Below, piece after piece: positions 41,107 to 49,219 of a stretch of DNA of 64,000 nt. Positions within the stretch are counted from its first letter, which is position 1, and every line of letters starts with the position of its first letter. Below the pieces are notes generated by a model that ran no database searches, was not told where the DNA came from, and saw nothing but the letters and a program-made list of their open reading frames with translations. Location: positions 1,730-65,729 of the forward strand of contig CAOKIU010000005.1 in the NCBI GenBank assembly GCA_948468595.1, given 5' to 3'. Made by a program: the position numbers and the translations under genes. Origin of the DNA: an uncultured Christensenella sp. (GTDB lineage Bacteria; Bacillota; Clostridia; Christensenellales; UBA1750).

Positions 41107-42486
41107 ATGCAGAACTTAGGTTGGATTTTCATCGAAATGGGCGCGAACCTGTTTCAAGGATTTTTAGTCACTTATTTCATCGATCATACGCTGCAAAGGA
41201 AGACGCCCGCCAAATGGCCTTCCTTGCTGTGCTGCGGCTGCTTCACCTTTCTGTGCTCGCTCTATCTTTTCTTCAACATGCCGTCCTTTGATACGTGGAT
41301 CTTTGCCGTGCCTTTGGTCTATTCTCTCGTCTTTTTTGAAGGATCGCTCAAGGAGAAGCTGCTGTGGAACGCGGTGCTGATCCCCATCTTCAACGGCATC
41401 GTTCTATTTTGCTACTACATTTTTGTCGCCGCCTTTGACGTGACGACAACCTATCTGTTGGAGCAGAACGCCTTTCGCGTGATCTTCCTGGCCGCGACAA
41501 ATCTTACGCTGTTTGTGACGCTGTTTGCCATCTCCCGCCACAAGCGCCGCCCGCTGAGCAACGTTTACCCGCTCCTGCTGTTCTTTGTCAACCACATCCT
41601 GGTCATCGCAATTATCGATATTCTCTTTTACATCCACGCCAGGGTCAGCTTTCTGGACCCCTGGCTGCTCCTTGCGGCGTCTTTGACGCTGCTGATCTCG
41701 GTGTCCTCCATTTTCCTGTATGAGATCATGGCCACCTACGCCGAGCGCGACTATGAGCGGCAGAAAAAGGAGTATCAGTTGGAGGCGGAAACCCACCGCC
41801 TGGAAGAGCTGCGCAGCATCAACGACTCGCTGCACAGGCTGCGCCACGACATGAAGAATCACATCCAGATCGCCGGAATGCTCATCAGCGCGGGGCGCAG
41901 CCAGGAGGGCGCCGCGTACTTAAAGGAGGCGGACCGCAACATCTTTTCCATCTTCTCCACCGGCTGCCTGCCGCTGGATTCGGAGCTGACCATGAAGGAA
42001 TTGGAGATGCGCCACAGCGGCATTGAATTCGAGCACGACCTGTGCGGCCTGGAAAACGCGCCGCTGAGCGACTTTGACTTGTGCGCTGTGGTGGGCAACC
42101 TGCTCGACAACGCGATTGAGGCCATTTCCCGCCTCCCCGTCCCGCCTGATAAGCCGGTGATCACCCTGCACATTCACCGCGTTCGGGACATGCTCTACAT
42201 TGAGTGCTCCAATCCCTGCGACCCTGCCGCCATCCTGCGCGAGGGCGAGCGGTTCCTCACCTCCAAAAAGGAGAGAGGGCACGGCCTGGGCATCCGCAAC
42301 ATCCAGGCCATCGCCCAAAACGCGCAGGGCTTTTCCTCCTTCACCGCGTCGGACGGCGCGTTTCATGCGTCGCTGGCCATACCCTATCTAACGGAGGCAG
42401 ATCAACATGATGTACATGGCAAGGCGCCTGACCAGCTATTTCATAAAAAAGGGACTCGTTTCGGAAAAGGAACGCGAGATCTATGA
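41107..42486 (+). CDS. AgrC-like membrane sensor histidine kinase (GHKL, HATPase_c_5 type)
   Basis: Polytopic N-terminus. H-box LHRLRHDMKNH, N-box NLLDNAIEA and G-box GHGLGIRNI. Confidence 0.85.
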   Translation: MQNLGWIFIEMGANLFQGFLVTYFIDHTLQRKTPAKWPSLLCCGCFTFLCSLYLFFNMPSFDTWIFAVPLVYSLVFFEGSLKEKLLWNAVLIPIFNGIVLFCYYIFVAAFDVTTTYLLEQNAFRVIFLAATNLTLFVTLFAISRHKRRPLSNVYPLLLFFVNHILVIAIIDILFYIHARVSFLDPWLLLAASLTLLISVSSIFLYEIMATYAERDYERQKKEYQLEAETHRLEELRSINDSLHRLRHDMKNHIQIAGMLISAGRSQEGAAYLKEADRNIFSIFSTGCLPLDSELTMKELEMRHSGIEFEHDLCGLENAPLSDFDLCAVVGNLLDNAIEAISRLPVPPDKPVITLHIHRVRDMLYIECSNPCDPAAILREGERFLTSKKERGHGLGIRNIQAIAQNAQGFSSFTASDGAFHASLAIPYLTEADQHDVHGKAPDQLFHKKGTRFGKGTRDL

Positions 42487-43204
42487 ATACGGCTTTGACA
42501 TCACCCTCTACACCATCTTGAGCACCGCGGGGCTGCTCCTGGCCGGCCTTCTCCTGCGGCAGCTGCTGGCCGCGGCGATCCTGGTGGCGATCTTCTACAC
42601 CTGCCAATCCAACGGCGGGGGCTATCACGCCTCCACCCACCTAAACTGTTTTCTGGTCATGCTCTCCGGCCTGCTCGCCGGGCTGGCCCTTTCGTTTTTC
42701 CCCGTCCCCGCGCCCGTGCTGTACGGCGTTGGCGCGCTGTCCTTTGCCGCGCTTTACGCCGTCCCCCTGGTGCTGCACCCCAACAAGCAGTATTTGGAGG
42801 GGGATCGCCCAAGGCTGACGCGCAGGTCCTACCTGGCCACCACCGCGCTCCTTGCCGCCTGCCTGCTGCTGATCTTTGTTCTGCGCCTGCCGTCCGCCCC
42901 CTTCGCGGCCGGCGTTGCGCTCTCGGCCGTCTCCCGCCTCGCCGCCATGATCATGGATGGCCGCCGCTGGGCCGCTTCGCGCGGCATTTGGCCACAACAA
43001 ATAACGACGGCGCAGCCCGTTTCCACGGGCTGCGCCTTCGTTGTCGATCATTCTATCAGCGCATCGGAGATCTCTTTTCTTCCGCGCTCACCGAAATCCA
43101 GTTCCGACGGGTTCAAATCGCAAACGAGCAAACCCGGCTTGCCCCGCTCCAGCTCCATCAGCGCATTGCCGGAACGGTCGAAGAGCGCGGTAGGCGCGGT
43201 CTGA
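42407..43204 (+). CDS. agrB: AgrB-family peptide-processing membrane protease; the annotated 3' end is probably too long
   Basis: Start follows GGAGG. GGGYHASTHLNCFLVMLSG carries the conserved His/Cys. The ORF reads through the 43009-43036 hairpin into the convergent gene. Confidence 0.75.
   Translation: MMYMARRLTSYFIKKGLVSEKEREIYEYGFDITLYTILSTAGLLLAGLLLRQLLAAAILVAIFYTCQSNGGGYHASTHLNCFLVMLSGLLAGLALSFFPVPAPVLYGVGALSFAALYAVPLVLHPNKQYLEGDRPRLTRRSYLATTALLAACLLLIFVLRLPSAPFAAGVALSAVSRLAAMIMDGRRWAASRGIWPQQITTAQPVSTGCAFVVDHSISASEISFLPRSPKSSSDGFKSQTSKPGLPRSSSISALPERSKSAVGAV
43009..43036. terminator. bidirectional hairpin between convergent agrB and the CN-hydrolase gene
   Basis: 11-bp stem GGCGCAGCCCG/CGGGCTGCGCC with T-rich flanks on both strands. 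Confidence 0.65.
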
Positions 43205-43818: not shown

Positions 43819-43989
43819 TTTTTTGCCGCTCCCATCCATCGATACGGATTTGGATTCCCCCTTTTTAGCATAACTGCCGACGATGATTCTGTCCACCCGC
43901 CTTTTGAAAAATAGGGGTAGCCCTGCCGCCTTCTTTTGGCTCGGGATCTTTTTCATTGCCTCCGTGACACAAGGCGCGCGTCCCCTTAT

Positions 43990-44997
43990 CTATGCGTTCA
44001 AGCATTCTACTAAAATATTGGCGCTCTCCACAATGTCCGCATTCGATCTTAACACCCACACCGGATAAGTATGTTGCATACAGCAATTCTCATAATTTGA
44101 GCCCAAACTCAGCCATTTCGGATGCTCCTGGCGATCATCAATCACCAAGCTTTCTAAATTGTTTTCTCCTTGCCTTTCTATATATGGACGTTCCCTTTCT
44201 TTGGAAAAATCACAGCGTATCACCCCGCCTATTTTTGCCTTAGTCGCCTTCAATATCCCATTTCGTCCAAATCCCTTCATATCCAAATAAAGCTTCTCAT
44301 ATCTGTCGCTTCTCACGGCATTCCTCATGATGTAATCAACAACAATGTTTTCGCTTCCAAAACCCTTCAGCAAAACATCCAGTGTGCTTTGTGTTATCCT
44401 TATGCTGTTATCCATACAGTACACATAATCATTCTTTGGCATATATGCCACTCGATCGTTGCCCAAAACTGCAATATCAGGGCTCAACGCAAGCGTTGCC
44501 AACAATGTCGTGCTTTTCCCTGATCCCTTTGTGCCAGATAACAAATATGCGATATTCTTATAGACAATTGCCGCTGCATGCAACATTTTGTACCCAGCCA
44601 AACTCATAGATTGCACGATAAAGCTCTTGACGACAAATCGCAAATCGCCCAGTTCTTCATAAAGAATCGTGATTTGCCGCCCTTTTTAGCGCACTACACA
44701 GGCGCCCATTCGATAAACGTTCTCTTCGCCTACTCGATACAATTCGGCATCGATGCGCGCATTGGGCTTCTCTCCGCCATGCACATTAACCATGGATGGC
44801 GGTGGTCCCTTCTTTAGCTCCTCAATAAAACGATAGCTTCCCTGTAAAAAAGTTAGACTGTACTCCACATGCCCATCGCTTTTCTCGTGATACGTCAACG
44901 CCTCATGAACGCTGCTTTGCAGATAGTGAAGCACACGTTCATCATCAGCATGTATAGCAAACCAAACGTCATGCACTTGCGCATAATACTCTTTCAT
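43990..44997 (-). pseudogene. HPr-kinase-related P-loop kinase, 336-codon frame interrupted by one in-frame TAA (44688-44686)
   Basis: Track ORFs 44686..44997 and 43990..44643 are in the same frame, separated by TAA plus 14 sense codons. P-loop LLSGTKGSGKSTT. The start follows GAGGAGGAG. Confidence 0.65.
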
Positions 44998-45091
44998 CTC
45001 ATACTCCTCCTCAATTTAATTCCAACATGCACCTTTACCATTCTCAAGCTTTTATTCCCAATGTAGTAAAGGCGACATCATTCTTGACGCT

Positions 45092-45256
45092 TGCACTGCT
45101 GTTAACGCCAATCCAAATTGAGAATATCCCTGTCTTTTTCGATACTTTTGCAACTGAAGACATGTTCATCAATAGATCTCCACAGCATCTCCGAAGCAAG
45201 GTTTGTACAGAAAAAAGTGGCCCTGCCTTTCTGATCAATTGCGTTCAGGTACATTA
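45092..45256 (-). CDS. short PqqD-like (RiPP recognition element-like) protein, 54 aa
   Basis: Below the track cutoff. MSCIMYLNAIDQKGRATFFCTNLASEMLWRSIDE... follows the PqqD pattern (x-LN-x-ta-x-iW). A G7 tract abuts the ATG. Confidence 0.4.
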
Positions 45257-45873
45257 TACAAGACATGACCCCCCCGAATGAATACTAGGCACAAACGGCC
45301 ATGAAAACATCATAATCAGCTTTAATTCTACGCCTGCAATGATAATCGAAAAAGTGAAACAAGGCTACTATCATTGGATCGAAGATTATGGCATGAGCGA
45401 AACCCTGCTAAGTGGCATTTCACGATGGACAAATACGCTTCCCGAAAGCGAACTCAGATTGATTATTCGTTTATTAAAGCATACCGAATTGAGCTGGACT
45501 TCTTACTCTCGGCGAGACCAGGAGAACGCTAGATTCTTAAGATGGATAAAGAAATCTTCAACAAATCAATCCAGGGATATGTTATGATTCAATAAGAACG
45601 TTCCTAGCCTTATGCAGTATGCGAAAGCATTGCGGGTGCAAAAGAGAGCCAAAGATTTGATTGGGTTATGGTAGAAATGGCAGATATAGCGGCTTCCGTT
45701 CTGGCGTAGCTTAAAAAACAAAGCATGGGGACGATGATTTTCTGGTGTTCAACGTCGCTTTATTATTTTTGTATTGACTTTTTGAGAAATTCATGTTACA
45801 AAAAAGTTATAAAAATACGAACTGAAAAAATCAGAGAGAAAACGGGGGGACGGACGGATTCCTGGACTTAATC

Positions 45874-45981
45874 TCACTTCAAGCCAAGGCTCTGTCGGTG
45901 CTCAAACGGATTTCTGCCGCCTAGAGACAGTTTGACGCATTTCTCGTCATACCTATGAACGTATTGATCCAAGTTCTCCAT
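45874..45981 (-). mobile_element. IS3-family transposase C-terminal remnant
   Basis: MENLDQYVHRYDEKCVKLSLGGRNPFEHRQSLGLK* resembles the YIxYYNxxRIKxKLxGxSPxxYR tail of IS3/IS150 OrfB. No upstream catalytic domain is present. Confidence 0.5.
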
Positions 45982-46004
45982 GAATAGTAACGAGTACAGG
46001 ATGA

Positions 46005-46427
46005 AGTGGTGTTTTAGAGAGAAGAGCTGATATCATTGCCATATTAGCCATATTAAAGAAGAGAGGGGAAATCGAATTAGTTGTTAACGGTAACTCAAGT
46101 TATCCCTGGGTACAAAGCGGGGATAAAGTTCGAATCAGATGTTGCGAGAAAATTAGGGTGGGAGAATTAGCATTGGGCATTAATCAACAGGGTAAATTGA
46201 TTCTTCATAGAATTGTTCGCATTGGAAGAGAAAAGGTGATTATGCAGGTATCATCACGAAAAGTTATTGGAGGATCACCCACAAGCGAATTCCATATCCA
46301 TCGCCAGATTGTAGAGCAATACAGATTATTAATTTCCCAAGTTATATTGCATATTATTGGGGACTACGCAGGAGGAGAAAATGAAAGTTTATGGTGTTGC
46401 AGCTTCAAGAGGTATTGCAGAAGGTAA
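46005..46427 (+). pseudogene. S26/S24 signal-peptidase-like protein, 5'-truncated
   Basis: VVNGNSSYPWVQSGDKVRI...VGELAL...LILHRIVRI follows the GxS(M)xP...GD...HRV pattern. The open frame starts at 46005 after a stop, with no start codon before GTG 46158. Confidence 0.5.
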
Positions 46428-46689
46428 GTGCGTCCTTTATCAGGACGATATAAGTTTCCGGGGCGATGAAAAGGTTATTTTGGTAACTGATTTTCTCCCG
46501 CCCTCGGTCGCATCGCTTGATCCAGCGGTTGTTGGAATCGTTACAGAAGACGGAGGAATATTATCACATGCTGCGTGCATAGCACGAGAAGTGGGCATTC
46601 CCTGCATTGTTGGAGTGGAGAACGCGATAGAGCTATTGGAGGATAAGTTTATAACAATGAATGGAGGAGAGGGCGAGATTTATGTTTGA
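46381..46689 (+). CDS. stand-alone PEP-utilising-enzyme mobile (swivel phosphohistidine) domain protein
   Basis: AGGAGGAG lies 5 nt before ATG 46381. GVAASRGIAEGKCVLY and TEDGGILSHAACIAREVGIPCIVG (catalytic His). Confidence 0.85.
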   Translation: MKVYGVAASRGIAEGKCVLYQDDISFRGDEKVILVTDFLPPSVASLDPAVVGIVTEDGGILSHAACIAREVGIPCIVGVENAIELLEDKFITMNGGEGEIYV

Positions 46690-47404
46690 GCAAATCGTGT
46701 CAGAAAAACTTTCTAAAATAAATGATGTTTATGCGCAAATTCATCAATGGCTGATGGCGGAAAGTAGCAGTTACAGAAACTTAATCAAAATGGAGACGCA
46801 GAACGACGAGATTACTCCAGGATATTTAGCGGATAGATACAAAACAACCTATGCCCAAGCAACAGTAAAAATGAACAATGCAGAAAATTACGTAAATAGG
46901 GTTTACTCAACAAACGATCATGGAGATCTATTGGAATTGAGTTTATTATATGCACTGCTCTATTATGTTTATCGAGATGTTCAGCAGTATATTTTCTCTT
47001 ATAACACCGTAATGAACAAAGTGCTCATCCCAGAATACTTGGATAGAAAATACTTGGAACTCAGCGAAGCATGTCCTGACGTACAAATCGATTATTTGGA
47101 ATTTCTTACTCATTTGGATAGGACGACACAAAATAGTTATCTAAAGAGGAGAAAGGAACCCGACAGTAATGCCCCTTGGATGGAGTCGGATTTAACAATA
47201 GAGGTTGCTGCAGTGCTCTCGGAACAAAAAAAATGGGAACGAGAATATAGCTCTTTCCTAAACAATAGGTTCACGCCGGCAATCCTTCTCCTCCGGGGAA
47301 GAATTCATAATTTATTGGCGGAAATGGGAATTGATATCCCTGAGGAAGACAAATACTGTTTGTGGAGGCTGCTACCATTTGTCAAGAAAGTGTTGGGCAA
47401 TTAA
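46682..47404 (+). CDS. 240-aa helical protein of unknown function (linker/substrate-domain candidate)
   Basis: ATG 46682 overlaps the upstream stop (ATGTTTGA) and follows GGAGGAGAGG. I recognise no motif. The C-terminus LLLRGRIHNLLAEMGIDIPEED resembles the helical linker that precedes swivel domains. Confidence 0.7.
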   Translation: MFEQIVSEKLSKINDVYAQIHQWLMAESSSYRNLIKMETQNDEITPGYLADRYKTTYAQATVKMNNAENYVNRVYSTNDHGDLLELSLLYALLYYVYRDVQQYIFSYNTVMNKVLIPEYLDRKYLELSEACPDVQIDYLEFLTHLDRTTQNSYLKRRKEPDSNAPWMESDLTIEVAAVLSEQKKWEREYSSFLNNRFTPAILLLRGRIHNLLAEMGIDIPEEDKYCLWRLLPFVKKVLGN

Positions 47405-47405
47405 C

Positions 47406-48221
47406 ATGAAAGTATATACGTTCGGAAATCGTGAAGATATGGCTCCAAAGGCGAAAAATCTAATTATTTTGTCAGAAAAAAAAATTACAATTCCCAATAC
47501 AATAATTATTCATTTGGAAAACTATTATGAATGCGAAATCAGAAAGTACTACGATGTATATGCTAAACGAGCATTAGATATATTCAGTCAAACCGATCTT
47601 GTGATATTTAGGCCGTGTATATGTGGAGAAGACGGGCAACAAAACTCCTTTGCAGGTATGATGGAGTCCTGCATCTTGCCGCAGTCTTGGATGGATCTAG
47701 ATGGCTTTATGGATGTAACGGGGCGAGCCATGGCGCTAGTAGAGACAGGGCGATACATGCGTGATTATATGAAAAAACGGGGGGTAGGATTACATGAAGT
47801 TCATGATTTGACTTGTATTTTTCAGGAATACATAATTGCTGATAAAGCAGGAGTGCTATTTACCAAAGATCCTGTAAATGGAAAGGACAAAATAATTATT
47901 GAAGCCACTTTTGGGCAAAACACTCCGATTACAGATGGAAAGATTGATCCGGATAGGTATATTGTAAACAAGCAGAGAGGGATTGAGGCTTGTCATATAG
48001 GAAGAAAAGAATATATAACCAGAATAGAGGCTAGAAAAGAAGTAAGTAAAAAGGCAGAGCAAAGTAGTGCACCAATAAGAGTGCTAGATAATCAAGAAAT
48101 TTCGAATCTGTGTACGGTTGCAGAAAGAGTTGAGAAAACATTTGGAACTCCACAGGATATCGAATGGGTAATTCAAGGAAATGAGATATTCGTTCTCCAG
48201 GCGCGACCAATTACTACATAA
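47406..48221 (+). CDS. stand-alone PPDK_N-type ATP-grasp (PEP/pyruvate-binding family) domain protein
   Basis: ATG lies 2 nt after the upstream stop. APKAKNLIILSEKKITIPNT, VLFTKDP, IIIEATFG and the terminal PQDIEWVIQGNEIFVLQARPITT. Confidence 0.85.
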   Translation: MKVYTFGNREDMAPKAKNLIILSEKKITIPNTIIIHLENYYECEIRKYYDVYAKRALDIFSQTDLVIFRPCICGEDGQQNSFAGMMESCILPQSWMDLDGFMDVTGRAMALVETGRYMRDYMKKRGVGLHEVHDLTCIFQEYIIADKAGVLFTKDPVNGKDKIIIEATFGQNTPITDGKIDPDRYIVNKQRGIEACHIGRKEYITRIEARKEVSKKAEQSSAPIRVLDNQEISNLCTVAERVEKTFGTPQDIEWVIQGNEIFVLQARPITT

Positions 48222-48233
48222 AGGAGAATGGAC

Positions 48234-48314
48234 GTGAAATACGCATTATCAGCAAATTATCGAAATGGCAAGGATGGAGCCATTCTATATCTAGCAATCG
48301 GAAAGGGAGGTTGA
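48234..48314 (+). CDS. 26-codon ORF with a strong SD after the ATP-grasp gene (peptide or truncated gene start)
   Basis: AAGGAGA lies 6 nt before GTG 48234. Translation (M)KYALSANYRNGKDGAILYLAIGKGG*. Confidence 0.25.
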   Translation: MKYALSANYRNGKDGAILYLAIGKGG

Positions 48315-48408
48315 AAGCCTCATTAACTGTGGATTGCAAATGCATATGTTCCAAATTAGCATTTCCGATCTGGGCTTGACGTATGTTTCACCTATAATAC
48401 TTGACACC

Positions 48409-49031
48409 CCCCATAATTCTCGCGCAGCTTCTCCACCAGATCGCGCGAAAACAGCGGCCTGCGTTCCATCAGGATAACGAGCCCCCTCGATGCGCTGCTC
48501 CGGGTTCAACTTGCGCTGCACCCTATAAATGGTCTGGAGCAGCATCTACAAACCCGCCGTAGAAATATACCGCGGCTGCGTGGGAATCATTACGGAATCC
48601 ACCGTGCCAGCGCGTTTATCGTCAGTACGTTCAGCGACGGCTGACAGTCGATGATCACATCGTCGAACTGCTCCTTCCCCCCCTCCAGAACCCGCCGCAG
48701 CACGCGCCGCCCGAACTCATTGGGCAGCGCCGCCTCGTACCCCGACAACTGAATGGACGCAGGCACCAGCCTCACATCTTCCCGGCAGTCCATTATGCCT
48801 TCGCCCTGCGCAAGGTGCTCCTCCCACACGGTCTTGTCCAACAGCGTGGCGATGGTGGTCCCCGGATTGTCCAGGTTGGCTCCCCAAGCTCATGGTCAGG
48901 TTCTCCTGCGGATCCAGATCGATGAGCAGCACGCGCCGCCCTGCATCCGCCAGCCTCACGCCCAGATTGTGCGCGGTGCACGTCTTTCCTACGCCGCCCT
49001 TCTGGTTGGCAATGGCAATCACTTTGGTCAT
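48409..49031 (-). pseudogene. parA: ParA/Soj-family ATPase pseudogene (three frameshifts, one TAG, 3'-truncated)
   Basis: [24 protein letters not shown]...[16 protein letters not shown], then the frame changes near 48877, 48600 and 48478. An in-frame TAG lies at about 48546-48548. Homology ends at ...LRENYGG where AT-rich DNA begins. Confidence 0.8.
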
Positions 49032-49219
49032 ACTACCGCCCTTTTGCTTCACAAAAAAGGATACTGCGAGATGCAGTACCCTACTTAGCCGCTATTCTTT
49101 TGTGTCCTCATTAAACGACCTCAACGACCACTGAGACGGTTATGATCTTTTACAGCCCCCTCTTTCAATGATTCGGCCTGACTGTATCGAATGCGGTATG
49201 GTCAATAAAATGTTGAATT

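Follow-up and report, generated by a model that had tools for sequence, protein, structure and literature searches.

A 64 kb stretch of DNA from an uncultured Christensenella sp. (64,000 nucleotides of contig CAOKIU010000005.1; hereafter the window, meaning the whole stretch that was analysed) carries three adjacent genes that may encode a three-component dikinase, with one catalytic module on each polypeptide. We regard it as highly probable that this triad is a His-relay dikinase, one that would pass phosphate from ATP through a phosphohistidine to an acceptor. That the acceptor is a peptide is an evenly balanced proposition, and the same balance holds for the combined reading, a three-component dikinase whose acceptor is most likely a ribosomal peptide. 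The three genes, 1.84 kb in total, are as follows.

46381..46689, plus strand: ORF1, ATG to TGA, 102 aa, a free-standing phosphohistidine swivel domain
46682..47404, plus strand: ORF2, ATG to TAA, 240 aa, all-helical, a new family, the proposed acceptor-site or docking subunit
47406..48221, plus strand: ORF3, ATG to TAA, 271 aa, a compact stand-alone PPDK_N ATP-grasp

An earlier note on this DNA had described ORF1 as only a swivel domain and ORF3 as only a PPDK_N domain, and profile searches bear this out. ORF1 matches PF00391 at E 5e-21 (74.4 bits against a gathering cut-off of 23.1, covering profile positions 2-72 of 72), and in NCBIfam alignments it falls on the swivels of PpsA (358-461), RPH (763-861) and PigC. 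ORF3 matches PF01326 at E 9e-36 (124.2 bits against a gathering cut-off of 27, profile positions 84-311), and the NCBIfam alignments place it on the N-terminal ATP-grasp segments of the same three enzymes, PpsA, RPH and PigC. Its matches in the PDB include PEP synthase 8a8e (E 3e-19) and RPH 5fbs (E 1e-15).

The residues expected to carry out catalysis are conserved as well. The His-swivel dikinases share the catalytic motif G-G-x-x-x-H-A-A-[IV/C]-x-x-R (PMC12167813), and the segment GGILSHAACIARE of ORF1, which contains the predicted phospho-acceptor His63, conforms to it. The string L-x-H-A-A-C-I-x-R-E is invariant across the swivel proteins of nine triad loci, and with it His63, A64, A65, R69 and E70 of ORF1. 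Residues of ORF3 that are invariant among triads are K15, R69, E75, D76, S81, A83, G84, Q140, E166, D251, E253, W254, Q265 and R267, and by alignment position ORF3 appears to retain counterparts of Lys22 and Arg117 of RPH. The invariant catalytic His and ATP-grasp residues support the idea, also put forward in the earlier note, of an ATP-driven His relay, in which both the activity and the acceptor are predictions. As judged from sequence, the triad has the defining features of the PEP-utilising/PPDK-type His-swivel dikinase superfamily. The PEP/pyruvate TIM barrel had been reported missing, and indeed a tblastn search of the 64 kb window with a PEP-utilizers_C protein came back blank; PF02896, the corresponding Pfam family, is not annotated at any related triad locus.

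The triad consists of three intact genes with a ribosome-binding site and coupling signals. An AGGAGG sequence sits 5' of the ORF1 start, the ORF1 stop and the ORF2 start overlap within ATGTTTGA, and a single spacer base separates the ORF2 stop from the ATG of ORF3 at 47406. The gene caller had put the start of ORF3 at TTG 47379 (280 aa), but family alignment favours ATG 47406. No terminator-like site was found within the triad.

The middle gene belongs to a family of its own. As the earlier note had said, ORF2 is helical and has no recognised motif: Pfam and NCBIfam searches gave no match, an hmmsearch of the ORF2 family profile against PDB sequences gave none either, and the AlphaFold2 model built from a nine-sequence family alignment (mean pLDDT 91, pTM 0.85) is all-helical. 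The model is made of long helices, three of which span 31-49 residues, and a Foldseek comparison with the PDB and BFVD yielded nothing significant (best E about 0.75, TM about 0.2), with RPH structures absent among the matches listed. The proposal that ORF2 is a divergent form of the RIF-binding domain or of the Enzyme I helical domain received no support from Pfam, hmmsearch against the PDB, hhalign or Foldseek. There was no match to PEP-utilisers_N in Pfam or to Enzyme I structures in Foldseek, and hhalign of the ORF2 profile against an RPH-type middle-plus-swivel protein from Saccharimonadales returned a probability of 0.1%.

Within the ORF2 family 15 positions are invariant, namely Met1 and 14 others that are mostly polar, the polar ones including Q101, N108, N112, K113, T149, Y153, S180, K183, E186 and R205. 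The majority of the invariant positions map to the two longest helices, and this distribution of invariant polar residues points to a surface for binding or catalysis more than to a simple spacer. The invariant positions, together with a dN/dS ratio (nonsynonymous to synonymous substitution rates) of 0.20, also speak against ORF2 being an unrelated insertion, a possibility that had been raised in the earlier note. The family is very rare. An exhaustive HMMER search of 1.84 billion representative proteins found 11 homologues at E <= 1e-3, all of them stand-alone and, when full-length, 238-265 aa long, bar one weak match of 285 aa; a word-indexed search of 5.8 billion proteins with ORF2 recovered the protein itself and one fragment 83% identical to it.

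The gene order swivel, ORF2-like, PPDK_N is kept at every ORF2-family locus that was read (L001/L002, L009-L012, L013, L014, L015, L020, L021/L022 and L023-L025); at L015 the contig breaks off inside the ORF2-like gene or right behind it, leaving the PPDK_N gene off the contig. The triad thus recurs beyond the window, in eight or more further lineages, which is far more than chance would account for. Each ORF2-like gene is flanked by a swivel gene of 102-116 aa and a PPDK_N gene of 251-313 aa, the swivel being encoded separately at every triad locus and the PPDK_N domain standing alone wherever it is on the contig. Neighbouring genes of the triads overlap by 4-49 nt or are separated by gaps of 1-23 nt, mostly with overlapping stop and start codons. 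Identity to the relatives from other lineages is low (22-37% for ORF2, 44-56% for ORF1 and 26-30% for ORF3) despite the shared layout, so the three-gene arrangement is, on this comparison, old and conserved rather than the product of recent fission. No fused or collinear relative of the triad was found among the 1.84 billion representatives or at the loci read, in agreement with the earlier view that the coupled genes are not pieces of one gene that is intact elsewhere.

All of the related triad loci stem from metagenome assemblies, and identical triad proteins were recovered in several independent ones. Pattern scans with ORF2 and ORF3 across 185,579 GTDB species genomes found nothing, a search of IMG/VR for the triad found nothing, tblastn against PLSDB plasmids and INPHARED phages found nothing, and a scan of JGI metagenomes returned the identical sequence only. 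Outside the triads, the nearest relatives of ORF3 are at most 33% identical to it. The closest in size are stand-alone ATP-grasp proteins of Saccharimonadales, followed by a swivel protein of 368-369 aa. This is a collinear two-gene split (L004 6001-7940, L006 71-1996) with ATP-grasp proteins of 267-290 aa, located among housekeeping genes; the second protein has a C-terminal swivel, and its N-terminal ~270 residues have no Pfam match. Another ORF3 relative comes from a PEP synthase of the ordinary split kind, which has a TIM-barrel gene.

The evidence for a peptide acceptor comes from the neighbourhoods of the related triads. In four lineages the triad adjoins radical SAM/SPASM peptide maturases, with PqqD or RRE (RiPP recognition element, where RiPP denotes a ribosomally synthesised and post-translationally modified peptide) and ABC genes at some loci. 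At L020, two radical SAM/SPASM genes lie 3' of the triad, and the N-terminus of the radical SAM protein looks RRE-like by inspection. L013 has a class-III aminotransferase-like gene 5' of the triad and two radical SAM genes 3' of it. The first of these two is B12-binding, and its start is overlapped by the stop of ORF3. The aminotransferase-like protein itself (L013 178-1368) ends in ~80 residues that by eye are of PqqD/RRE type, an unusual fusion if real. At L023-L025 the triad comes after a helix-turn-helix regulator, NTP_transf_5, an 84-aa protein, three radical SAM/SPASM genes, a PNP_UDP_1-like gene and a 34-codon ORF, and is itself followed by GNAT_C and an ABC-2 exporter. The 84-aa protein of L023 has a weak PqqD match (E 0.0015, below the Pfam cut-off), and between the 34-codon ORF and the triad (L023 9391-9560) lies a fragment, with the letters IPPKYNASEIMVYLKR, that seems to be IS200/IS605 TnpA-like.

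The radical SAM proteins of the related loci are homologous to one another at 23-35% identity, and they match many peptide-maturase models, none above cut-off. At L021/L022 the triad is intact and is followed by the stump of a radical SAM gene (L021 1991-2377, L022 1965-2351) corresponding to maturase residues about 11 to about 155, past which the GC content rises to about 58%. These loci represent a second, independent orphan low-GC cassette with the same pattern as the window, in which a stub is left of the core maturase; L013, L020 and L023 have radical SAM/SPASM genes.

A mechanism for the triad can be proposed from homology and gene context. ORF3 would bind ATP and pass its beta-phosphate to His63 of ORF1, yielding AMP and Pi, a step predicted from the homology and the invariant residues. 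Lacking a tether, ORF1, a swivel domain of 102 aa, would then shuttle as a small, diffusible phosphocarrier. Phospho-ORF1 would dock on ORF2, where the invariant Gln, Asn, Lys, Ser, Glu and Arg residues on the long helices may form a second active site and bind the acceptor. Based on the neighbourhoods of the related loci, the acceptor would most likely be a ribosomal peptide on which the radical SAM/SPASM maturases act, in its precursor form or as the end product. A division of labour between separate chains has been described for HpeHI, in which HpeH (homologous to the RPH binding domain plus swivel) works with a separate ATP-grasp protein by way of a transient complex, and in which the swivel-bearing partner alone carries out the second transfer (PMC12167813).

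Several observations weigh against this scheme. No homology could be detected between ORF2 and either the RPH-type binding domain or a solved fold, and its assignment as the acceptor site is inferred from its conservation pattern and its position. A search of the window and the related loci turned up no credible precursor peptide, the 34-aa ORFs of L023 being putative candidates at most, and no radical SAM gene is adjacent on the downstream side of L009 or on the upstream side of L014. The aminotransferase, PNP_UDP_1 and GNAT_C genes of the related loci would fit a non-peptide acceptor equally well. The 64 kb window contains no maturase, PqqD or exporter, so that a local peptide substrate is missing, and in L001, the sister copy of the window's triad, ORF2 is broken by a stop and a 1-nt deletion.

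Comparison with known enzymes suggests that the triad would work like the His-swivel dikinases and belongs to no architecture described for them. PpsAB, CreHI and HpeHI resemble the triad in that the ATP-grasp is on a separate polypeptide that is encoded last; in these two-component enzymes the beta-phosphate of ATP travels on the swivel His (AMP and Pi being formed) to a remote second site where the acceptor is bound, and the two components associate only transiently (PMC12167813). They differ in having the swivel fused C-terminally to an RPH-type binding domain, hence two proteins, whereas the triad has three, with the swivel alone; in the fold of the triad's middle gene product, which has no detectable homology to that binding domain; and in context, which is aromatic catabolism for PpsAB, CreHI and HpeHI and radical SAM peptide-maturase clusters for the triad. 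With a separate ATP-grasp but a swivel unfused to any binding domain, the triad half-fits the two-component group.

RPH and the PRK06241 family (the prodigiosin ligases PigC, RedH and HapC) are like the triad in combining an ATP-grasp and a swivel His with an acceptor domain that is not a TIM barrel. ORF1 (E about 1e-16 to 1e-9) and ORF3 (E about 1e-22 to 1e-27) match the RPH/PRK06241 models, at scores of 60-90 bits against RPH-family cut-offs of 999-1300. RPH has its ATP-grasp, binding domain and swivel, in that order, on one chain of about 860 aa, whereas the triad has three chains in another order. The earlier note had called the gene order the exact reverse of that in the single-chain enzymes, and this is correct for RPH but not for PpsA and PPDK, in which the ATP-grasp is followed by the swivel and then the TIM barrel. 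The absence of a RIF-binding-type domain and the difference in order and chain number place the triad outside the RPH/PigC group. In the second site of RPH, it is three residues of one helix, Arg666, Glu667 and Lys670, that hold the phospho-His and the acceptor in position (PMC4844700). K183, E186 and R205 of ORF2 resemble these residues in kind only, since homology was tested for and not found.

The ATP-grasp and swivel domains of PpsA and PPDK are homologous to those of the triad, and the same first half-reaction would be expected. These enzymes have a TIM barrel (PF02896), and the triad has none in the window or at related loci, which puts it outside the PEP synthase/PPDK group; its modules are, moreover, split and permuted. 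The regulatory Thr that PpsA and PPDK have two residues before the His (GGxTxH) is a Leu in ORF1 (GGILSH). Enzyme I and HPr of the phosphotransferase system (PTS) offer an analogy only, that of a small diffusible phosphohistidine carrier moving between proteins. In Enzyme I, a helical subdomain beside the swivel docks the protein acceptor. The phosphate donor of the PTS is PEP, in contrast to ATP, the donor proposed for the triad. A functional analogy is also found in the tailoring kinases of RiPP clusters (HPr-kinase-like lasso peptide kinases and the LanL/LanKC kinase domains), which carry out ATP-dependent phosphorylation of a ribosomal peptide within the cluster. These kinases have unrelated folds and transfer the gamma-phosphate directly, with no phosphohistidine relay. 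Full-text searches on RiPPs, radical SAM enzymes, dikinases and phosphohistidine swivels, made outside the subscription-only literature, gave no account of a system like the triad.

The window copy sits in an island whose composition differs from that of its host, and around the triad there are remains of other genes. The relevant features are listed here.

43960..48350, no strand: low-GC island, about 38-46% GC, with a triad GC3 (GC at third codon positions) of 0.31-0.41, from a composition profile
43990..44997, minus strand: 335-codon HPrK-related P-loop gene, broken by a single in-frame TAA (codon 104), from translation
46241..48340, plus strand: conserved cassette of leader, triad and stub, 84% nucleotide identity to metagenome contigs L001 and L002, from blastn, tblastn and alignments
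46242..46380, plus strand: leader 5' of ORF1, containing a 61-codon, probably non-genic ORF (to 46427)
48236..48339, plus strand: stub (the RRE-like N-terminus) of a lost radical SAM/SPASM maturase, from L001 homology

The surrounding host DNA is 60-70% GC and host genes have a GC3 of 0.64-0.85, and such a low-GC island in a high-GC host indicates horizontal acquisition from a low-GC organism. The identity of the stub came from L001, where a 77-aa ORF 3' of the triad can be aligned with the L020 radical SAM protein over residues 2-66 of the latter (E 2e-7). The ORF at 48236-48314 in the window is this L001 stub with an internal deletion; it has 25 codons, with a stop at 48314, and is followed by out-of-frame residual similarity. 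A tblastn search of the 64 kb window with the maturase, PqqD, NTP_transf_5 and GNAT_C proteins of the related loci found nothing. The window copy can thus be described as the remnant of an imported cassette that has lost its maturase and retains an intact triad.

The window and L001 share 46241-48340 only, that is, the leader, the triad and the stub, and their flanks differ on both sides. Past the shared stub the flanking gene is a ParA-like pseudogene in the window and a Bro-N/ANT gene in L001, and in both the composition climbs to host level directly after the stub. A shared right end at the stub, combined with differing flanks, argues that the maturase was probably lost before the two copies diverged. 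The dN/dS ratios against L001 are 0.08 for ORF1, 0.20 for ORF2 and 0.18 for ORF3 at a dS of about 0.55, so the triad is under strong purifying selection, and if the maturase was lost before divergence this selection acted without a maturase in cis. The L001 triad is itself decaying in ORF2; the two assemblies that show the broken gene may come from one sample.

The earlier note had described the neighbours of the triad as RiPP-style accessory genes. Of these, the HPrK-like gene is present, broken as listed and with matches (TIGR04352, E 3e-4; TIGR04355, E 9e-4) that are weak and far below cut-off; it recalls the HPr-kinase-like RiPP kinases. The PqqD-like gene could not be recovered, no ORF in the window having a Pfam match to PqqD, and the S26-like peptidase was unsupported. 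The S24/S26 peptidase candidate at 46005-46427 was rejected, as it has no start codon, no Pfam or PDB match, and a dN/dS of about 2 against L001. A RiPP-type link therefore holds through the related loci, with their radical SAM/SPASM, PqqD, B12-radical SAM and ABC genes, and not through the window's own neighbours.

The region 5' of the triad has short ORFs only and no confirmed gene. The 61-codon ORF at 46242-46427, with the ribosome-binding site AAGGTG, a GG motif and a Cys-rich tail, starts exactly where the L001 homology begins, and was considered as a precursor peptide. More probably it is spurious, since codon 5 is a TAA in L001 and there is no sign of purifying selection (13 nonsynonymous and 2 synonymous differences from L001, dN/dS about 2). 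Its Cys-rich tail is an alternative frame of the conserved N-terminal motif of ORF1, and no conserved small ORF is shared 5' of ORF1 across the other loci. A leader riboswitch was rejected as well, the fluoride-riboswitch match at 46238-46308 on the minus strand being sub-threshold (20.3 bits versus 34, E 0.026) and, on the strand opposite the operon, most likely due to chance; Rfam gave no match at gathering score across the whole window. A short minus-strand ORF at 45874-45981, ending in YVHRYDEKCVKLSLGGRNPFEHRQ, is presumably like the C-terminal tail of an IS3-type transposase, and a Pfam search with this 35-aa piece gave no match. Abutting the right end of the island is a ParA/MinD-like ATPase gene (48340-49052, minus strand) that is frame-shifted after about 62 residues, and a pseudogene of this kind at the island edge suggests a degraded mobile-element region. 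Searches for flanking repeats or att sites around the island produced nothing convincing. To the left, the host encodes an agr-type quorum-sensing pair at 41107-43040 on the plus strand, in which AgrB (PF04647, E 2e-23) comes after a GHKL histidine kinase (PF14501, E 7e-19).

If the triad does phosphorylate a peptide, tailoring or activation and an RPH-like role in immunity or resistance stand at roughly equal chances. A distinct explanation, a minority view that we rate as somewhat unlikely, keeps the mechanism proposed above and changes its biological role: the triad would inactivate a finished antimicrobial peptide by phosphorylation, in the way RPH inactivates rifampicin, and bacteria that do not produce the peptide would retain it and pass it on as a protective orphan cassette. 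The window and L001 on the one hand, and L021/L022 independently on the other, keep the triad beside a radical SAM stump (with ORF2 broken in L001), and host-level GC resumes right after the stumps. The composition of the island is foreign, and a dS of 0.55 with dN/dS of 0.08-0.20 would have accrued without a maturase in cis, given the right end common to the window and L001. A protective gene set would be expected to be kept and moved on its own time and again, as the triad seems to have been. Furthermore, the L023 triad lies beside GNAT_C and an ABC exporter, and RPH, the best characterised of the single-chain relatives, confers resistance (PMC4844700). On the other side, the triads of L013 and L020 are tightly packed within biosynthetic genes (at L013 to the point of the stop/start overlap noted above), ORF2 is decaying in L001, and maturase genes or a trans-encoded cluster could sit elsewhere in these genomes. 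That the known RiPP kinases are tailoring enzymes also weighs against an immunity role.

An unlikely explanation is that the acceptor is a small molecule, either a pathway intermediate or a cofactor, in which case the association with radical SAM genes would reflect a non-ribosomal pathway. Apart from PEP synthase, PPDK and the PTS, every relative that has been characterised uses small molecules (PMC12167813, PMC4844700; PigC/RedH models), the parallels being phenol, cresol and hydroxyacetophenone for PpsAB, CreHI and HpeHI, and the bipyrrole aldehyde MBC for PigC. The class-III aminotransferase, the PNP_UDP_1 phosphorylase-like gene and GNAT_C at related loci would suit such a substrate, the best NCBIfam matches of the B12-radical SAM protein include the small-molecule enzymes BchE and ArsL, and a precursor peptide has not been identified. 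Against this, the adjacent radical SAM proteins have SPASM domains and find peptide maturases as their best matches, and the N-terminus at L020 is RRE-like by inspection. A peptide acceptor is also favoured by L023, with its weak stand-alone PqqD-like match (E 0.0015, below cut-off) and ABC2-type exporter, and by L013, where the end of the aminotransferase-like protein is RRE-type by inspection.

Quite unlikely, in our estimate, is an inert remnant, a triad that is intact because it was transferred recently, has no substrate or function here, and is heading for decay. The state of its surroundings is in keeping with this idea, namely an HPrK-like gene with a TAA, a radical SAM stub, a ParA-like frameshift and no confirmed upstream gene, as are the loss of ORF2 in the sister copy L001 and the lack of partner genes in the 64 kb window. 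Intact coding over 1.84 kb, with coupling signals and a ribosome-binding site, argues the other way, and so do the strong purifying selection over a dS of about 0.55 and the identical proteins in several independent metagenome assemblies.

That the three genes are fragments of one disrupted PEP-synthase/RPH-like gene, or an assembly or frameshift artefact, has next to no chance of being correct and was rejected: frameshifts and stops do occur in nearby island genes, but all relatives keep an order that no known single-chain enzyme shares collinearly, the three-gene layout is present at every other locus read at ORF2 identities of 22-37%, no fused homologue turned up among the 1.84 billion representatives, ORF2 is not homologous to any segment of RPH or PpsA, and the ORFs each begin at a start codon of their own and span a complete domain. 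An anti-phage defence system was likewise rejected; PADLOC gave zero matches for all triad proteins, and PHROGs matches were limited to a generic kinase phrog, for ORF1 and ORF3.

The three-component dikinase with a proposed peptide acceptor can be extended, tentatively and at somewhat less than an even chance, to the fuller proposal that the triad represents an undescribed class of three-component phosphohistidine relays, in which the free swivel protein of about 100 residues would carry phosphate between the ATP-grasp subunit and the helical acceptor subunit. Such relays would phosphorylate radical-SAM-modified ribosomal peptides, whether for tailoring, activation or neutralisation, and as orphan cassettes sufficient in themselves they could move from one Firmicute to another. 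With only a remnant in the window, the value of the finding is as a pointer to the family. If the proposal is true, PPDK/RPH-type chemistry, the conversion of ATP to AMP and Pi through a phospho-His, would extend to ribosomal peptide natural products, and the tether of the swivel domain would be dispensable, making the triad a minimal modular form of these enzymes. ORF2 would add a new fold, whose invariant polar positions are candidate residues of a second active site. The triad also provides a genome-mining handle for uncharacterised radical SAM/SPASM clusters in uncultured low-GC Firmicutes and, should the orphan cassettes prove to be protective, they would constitute a transferable resistance element against a peptide antibiotic.

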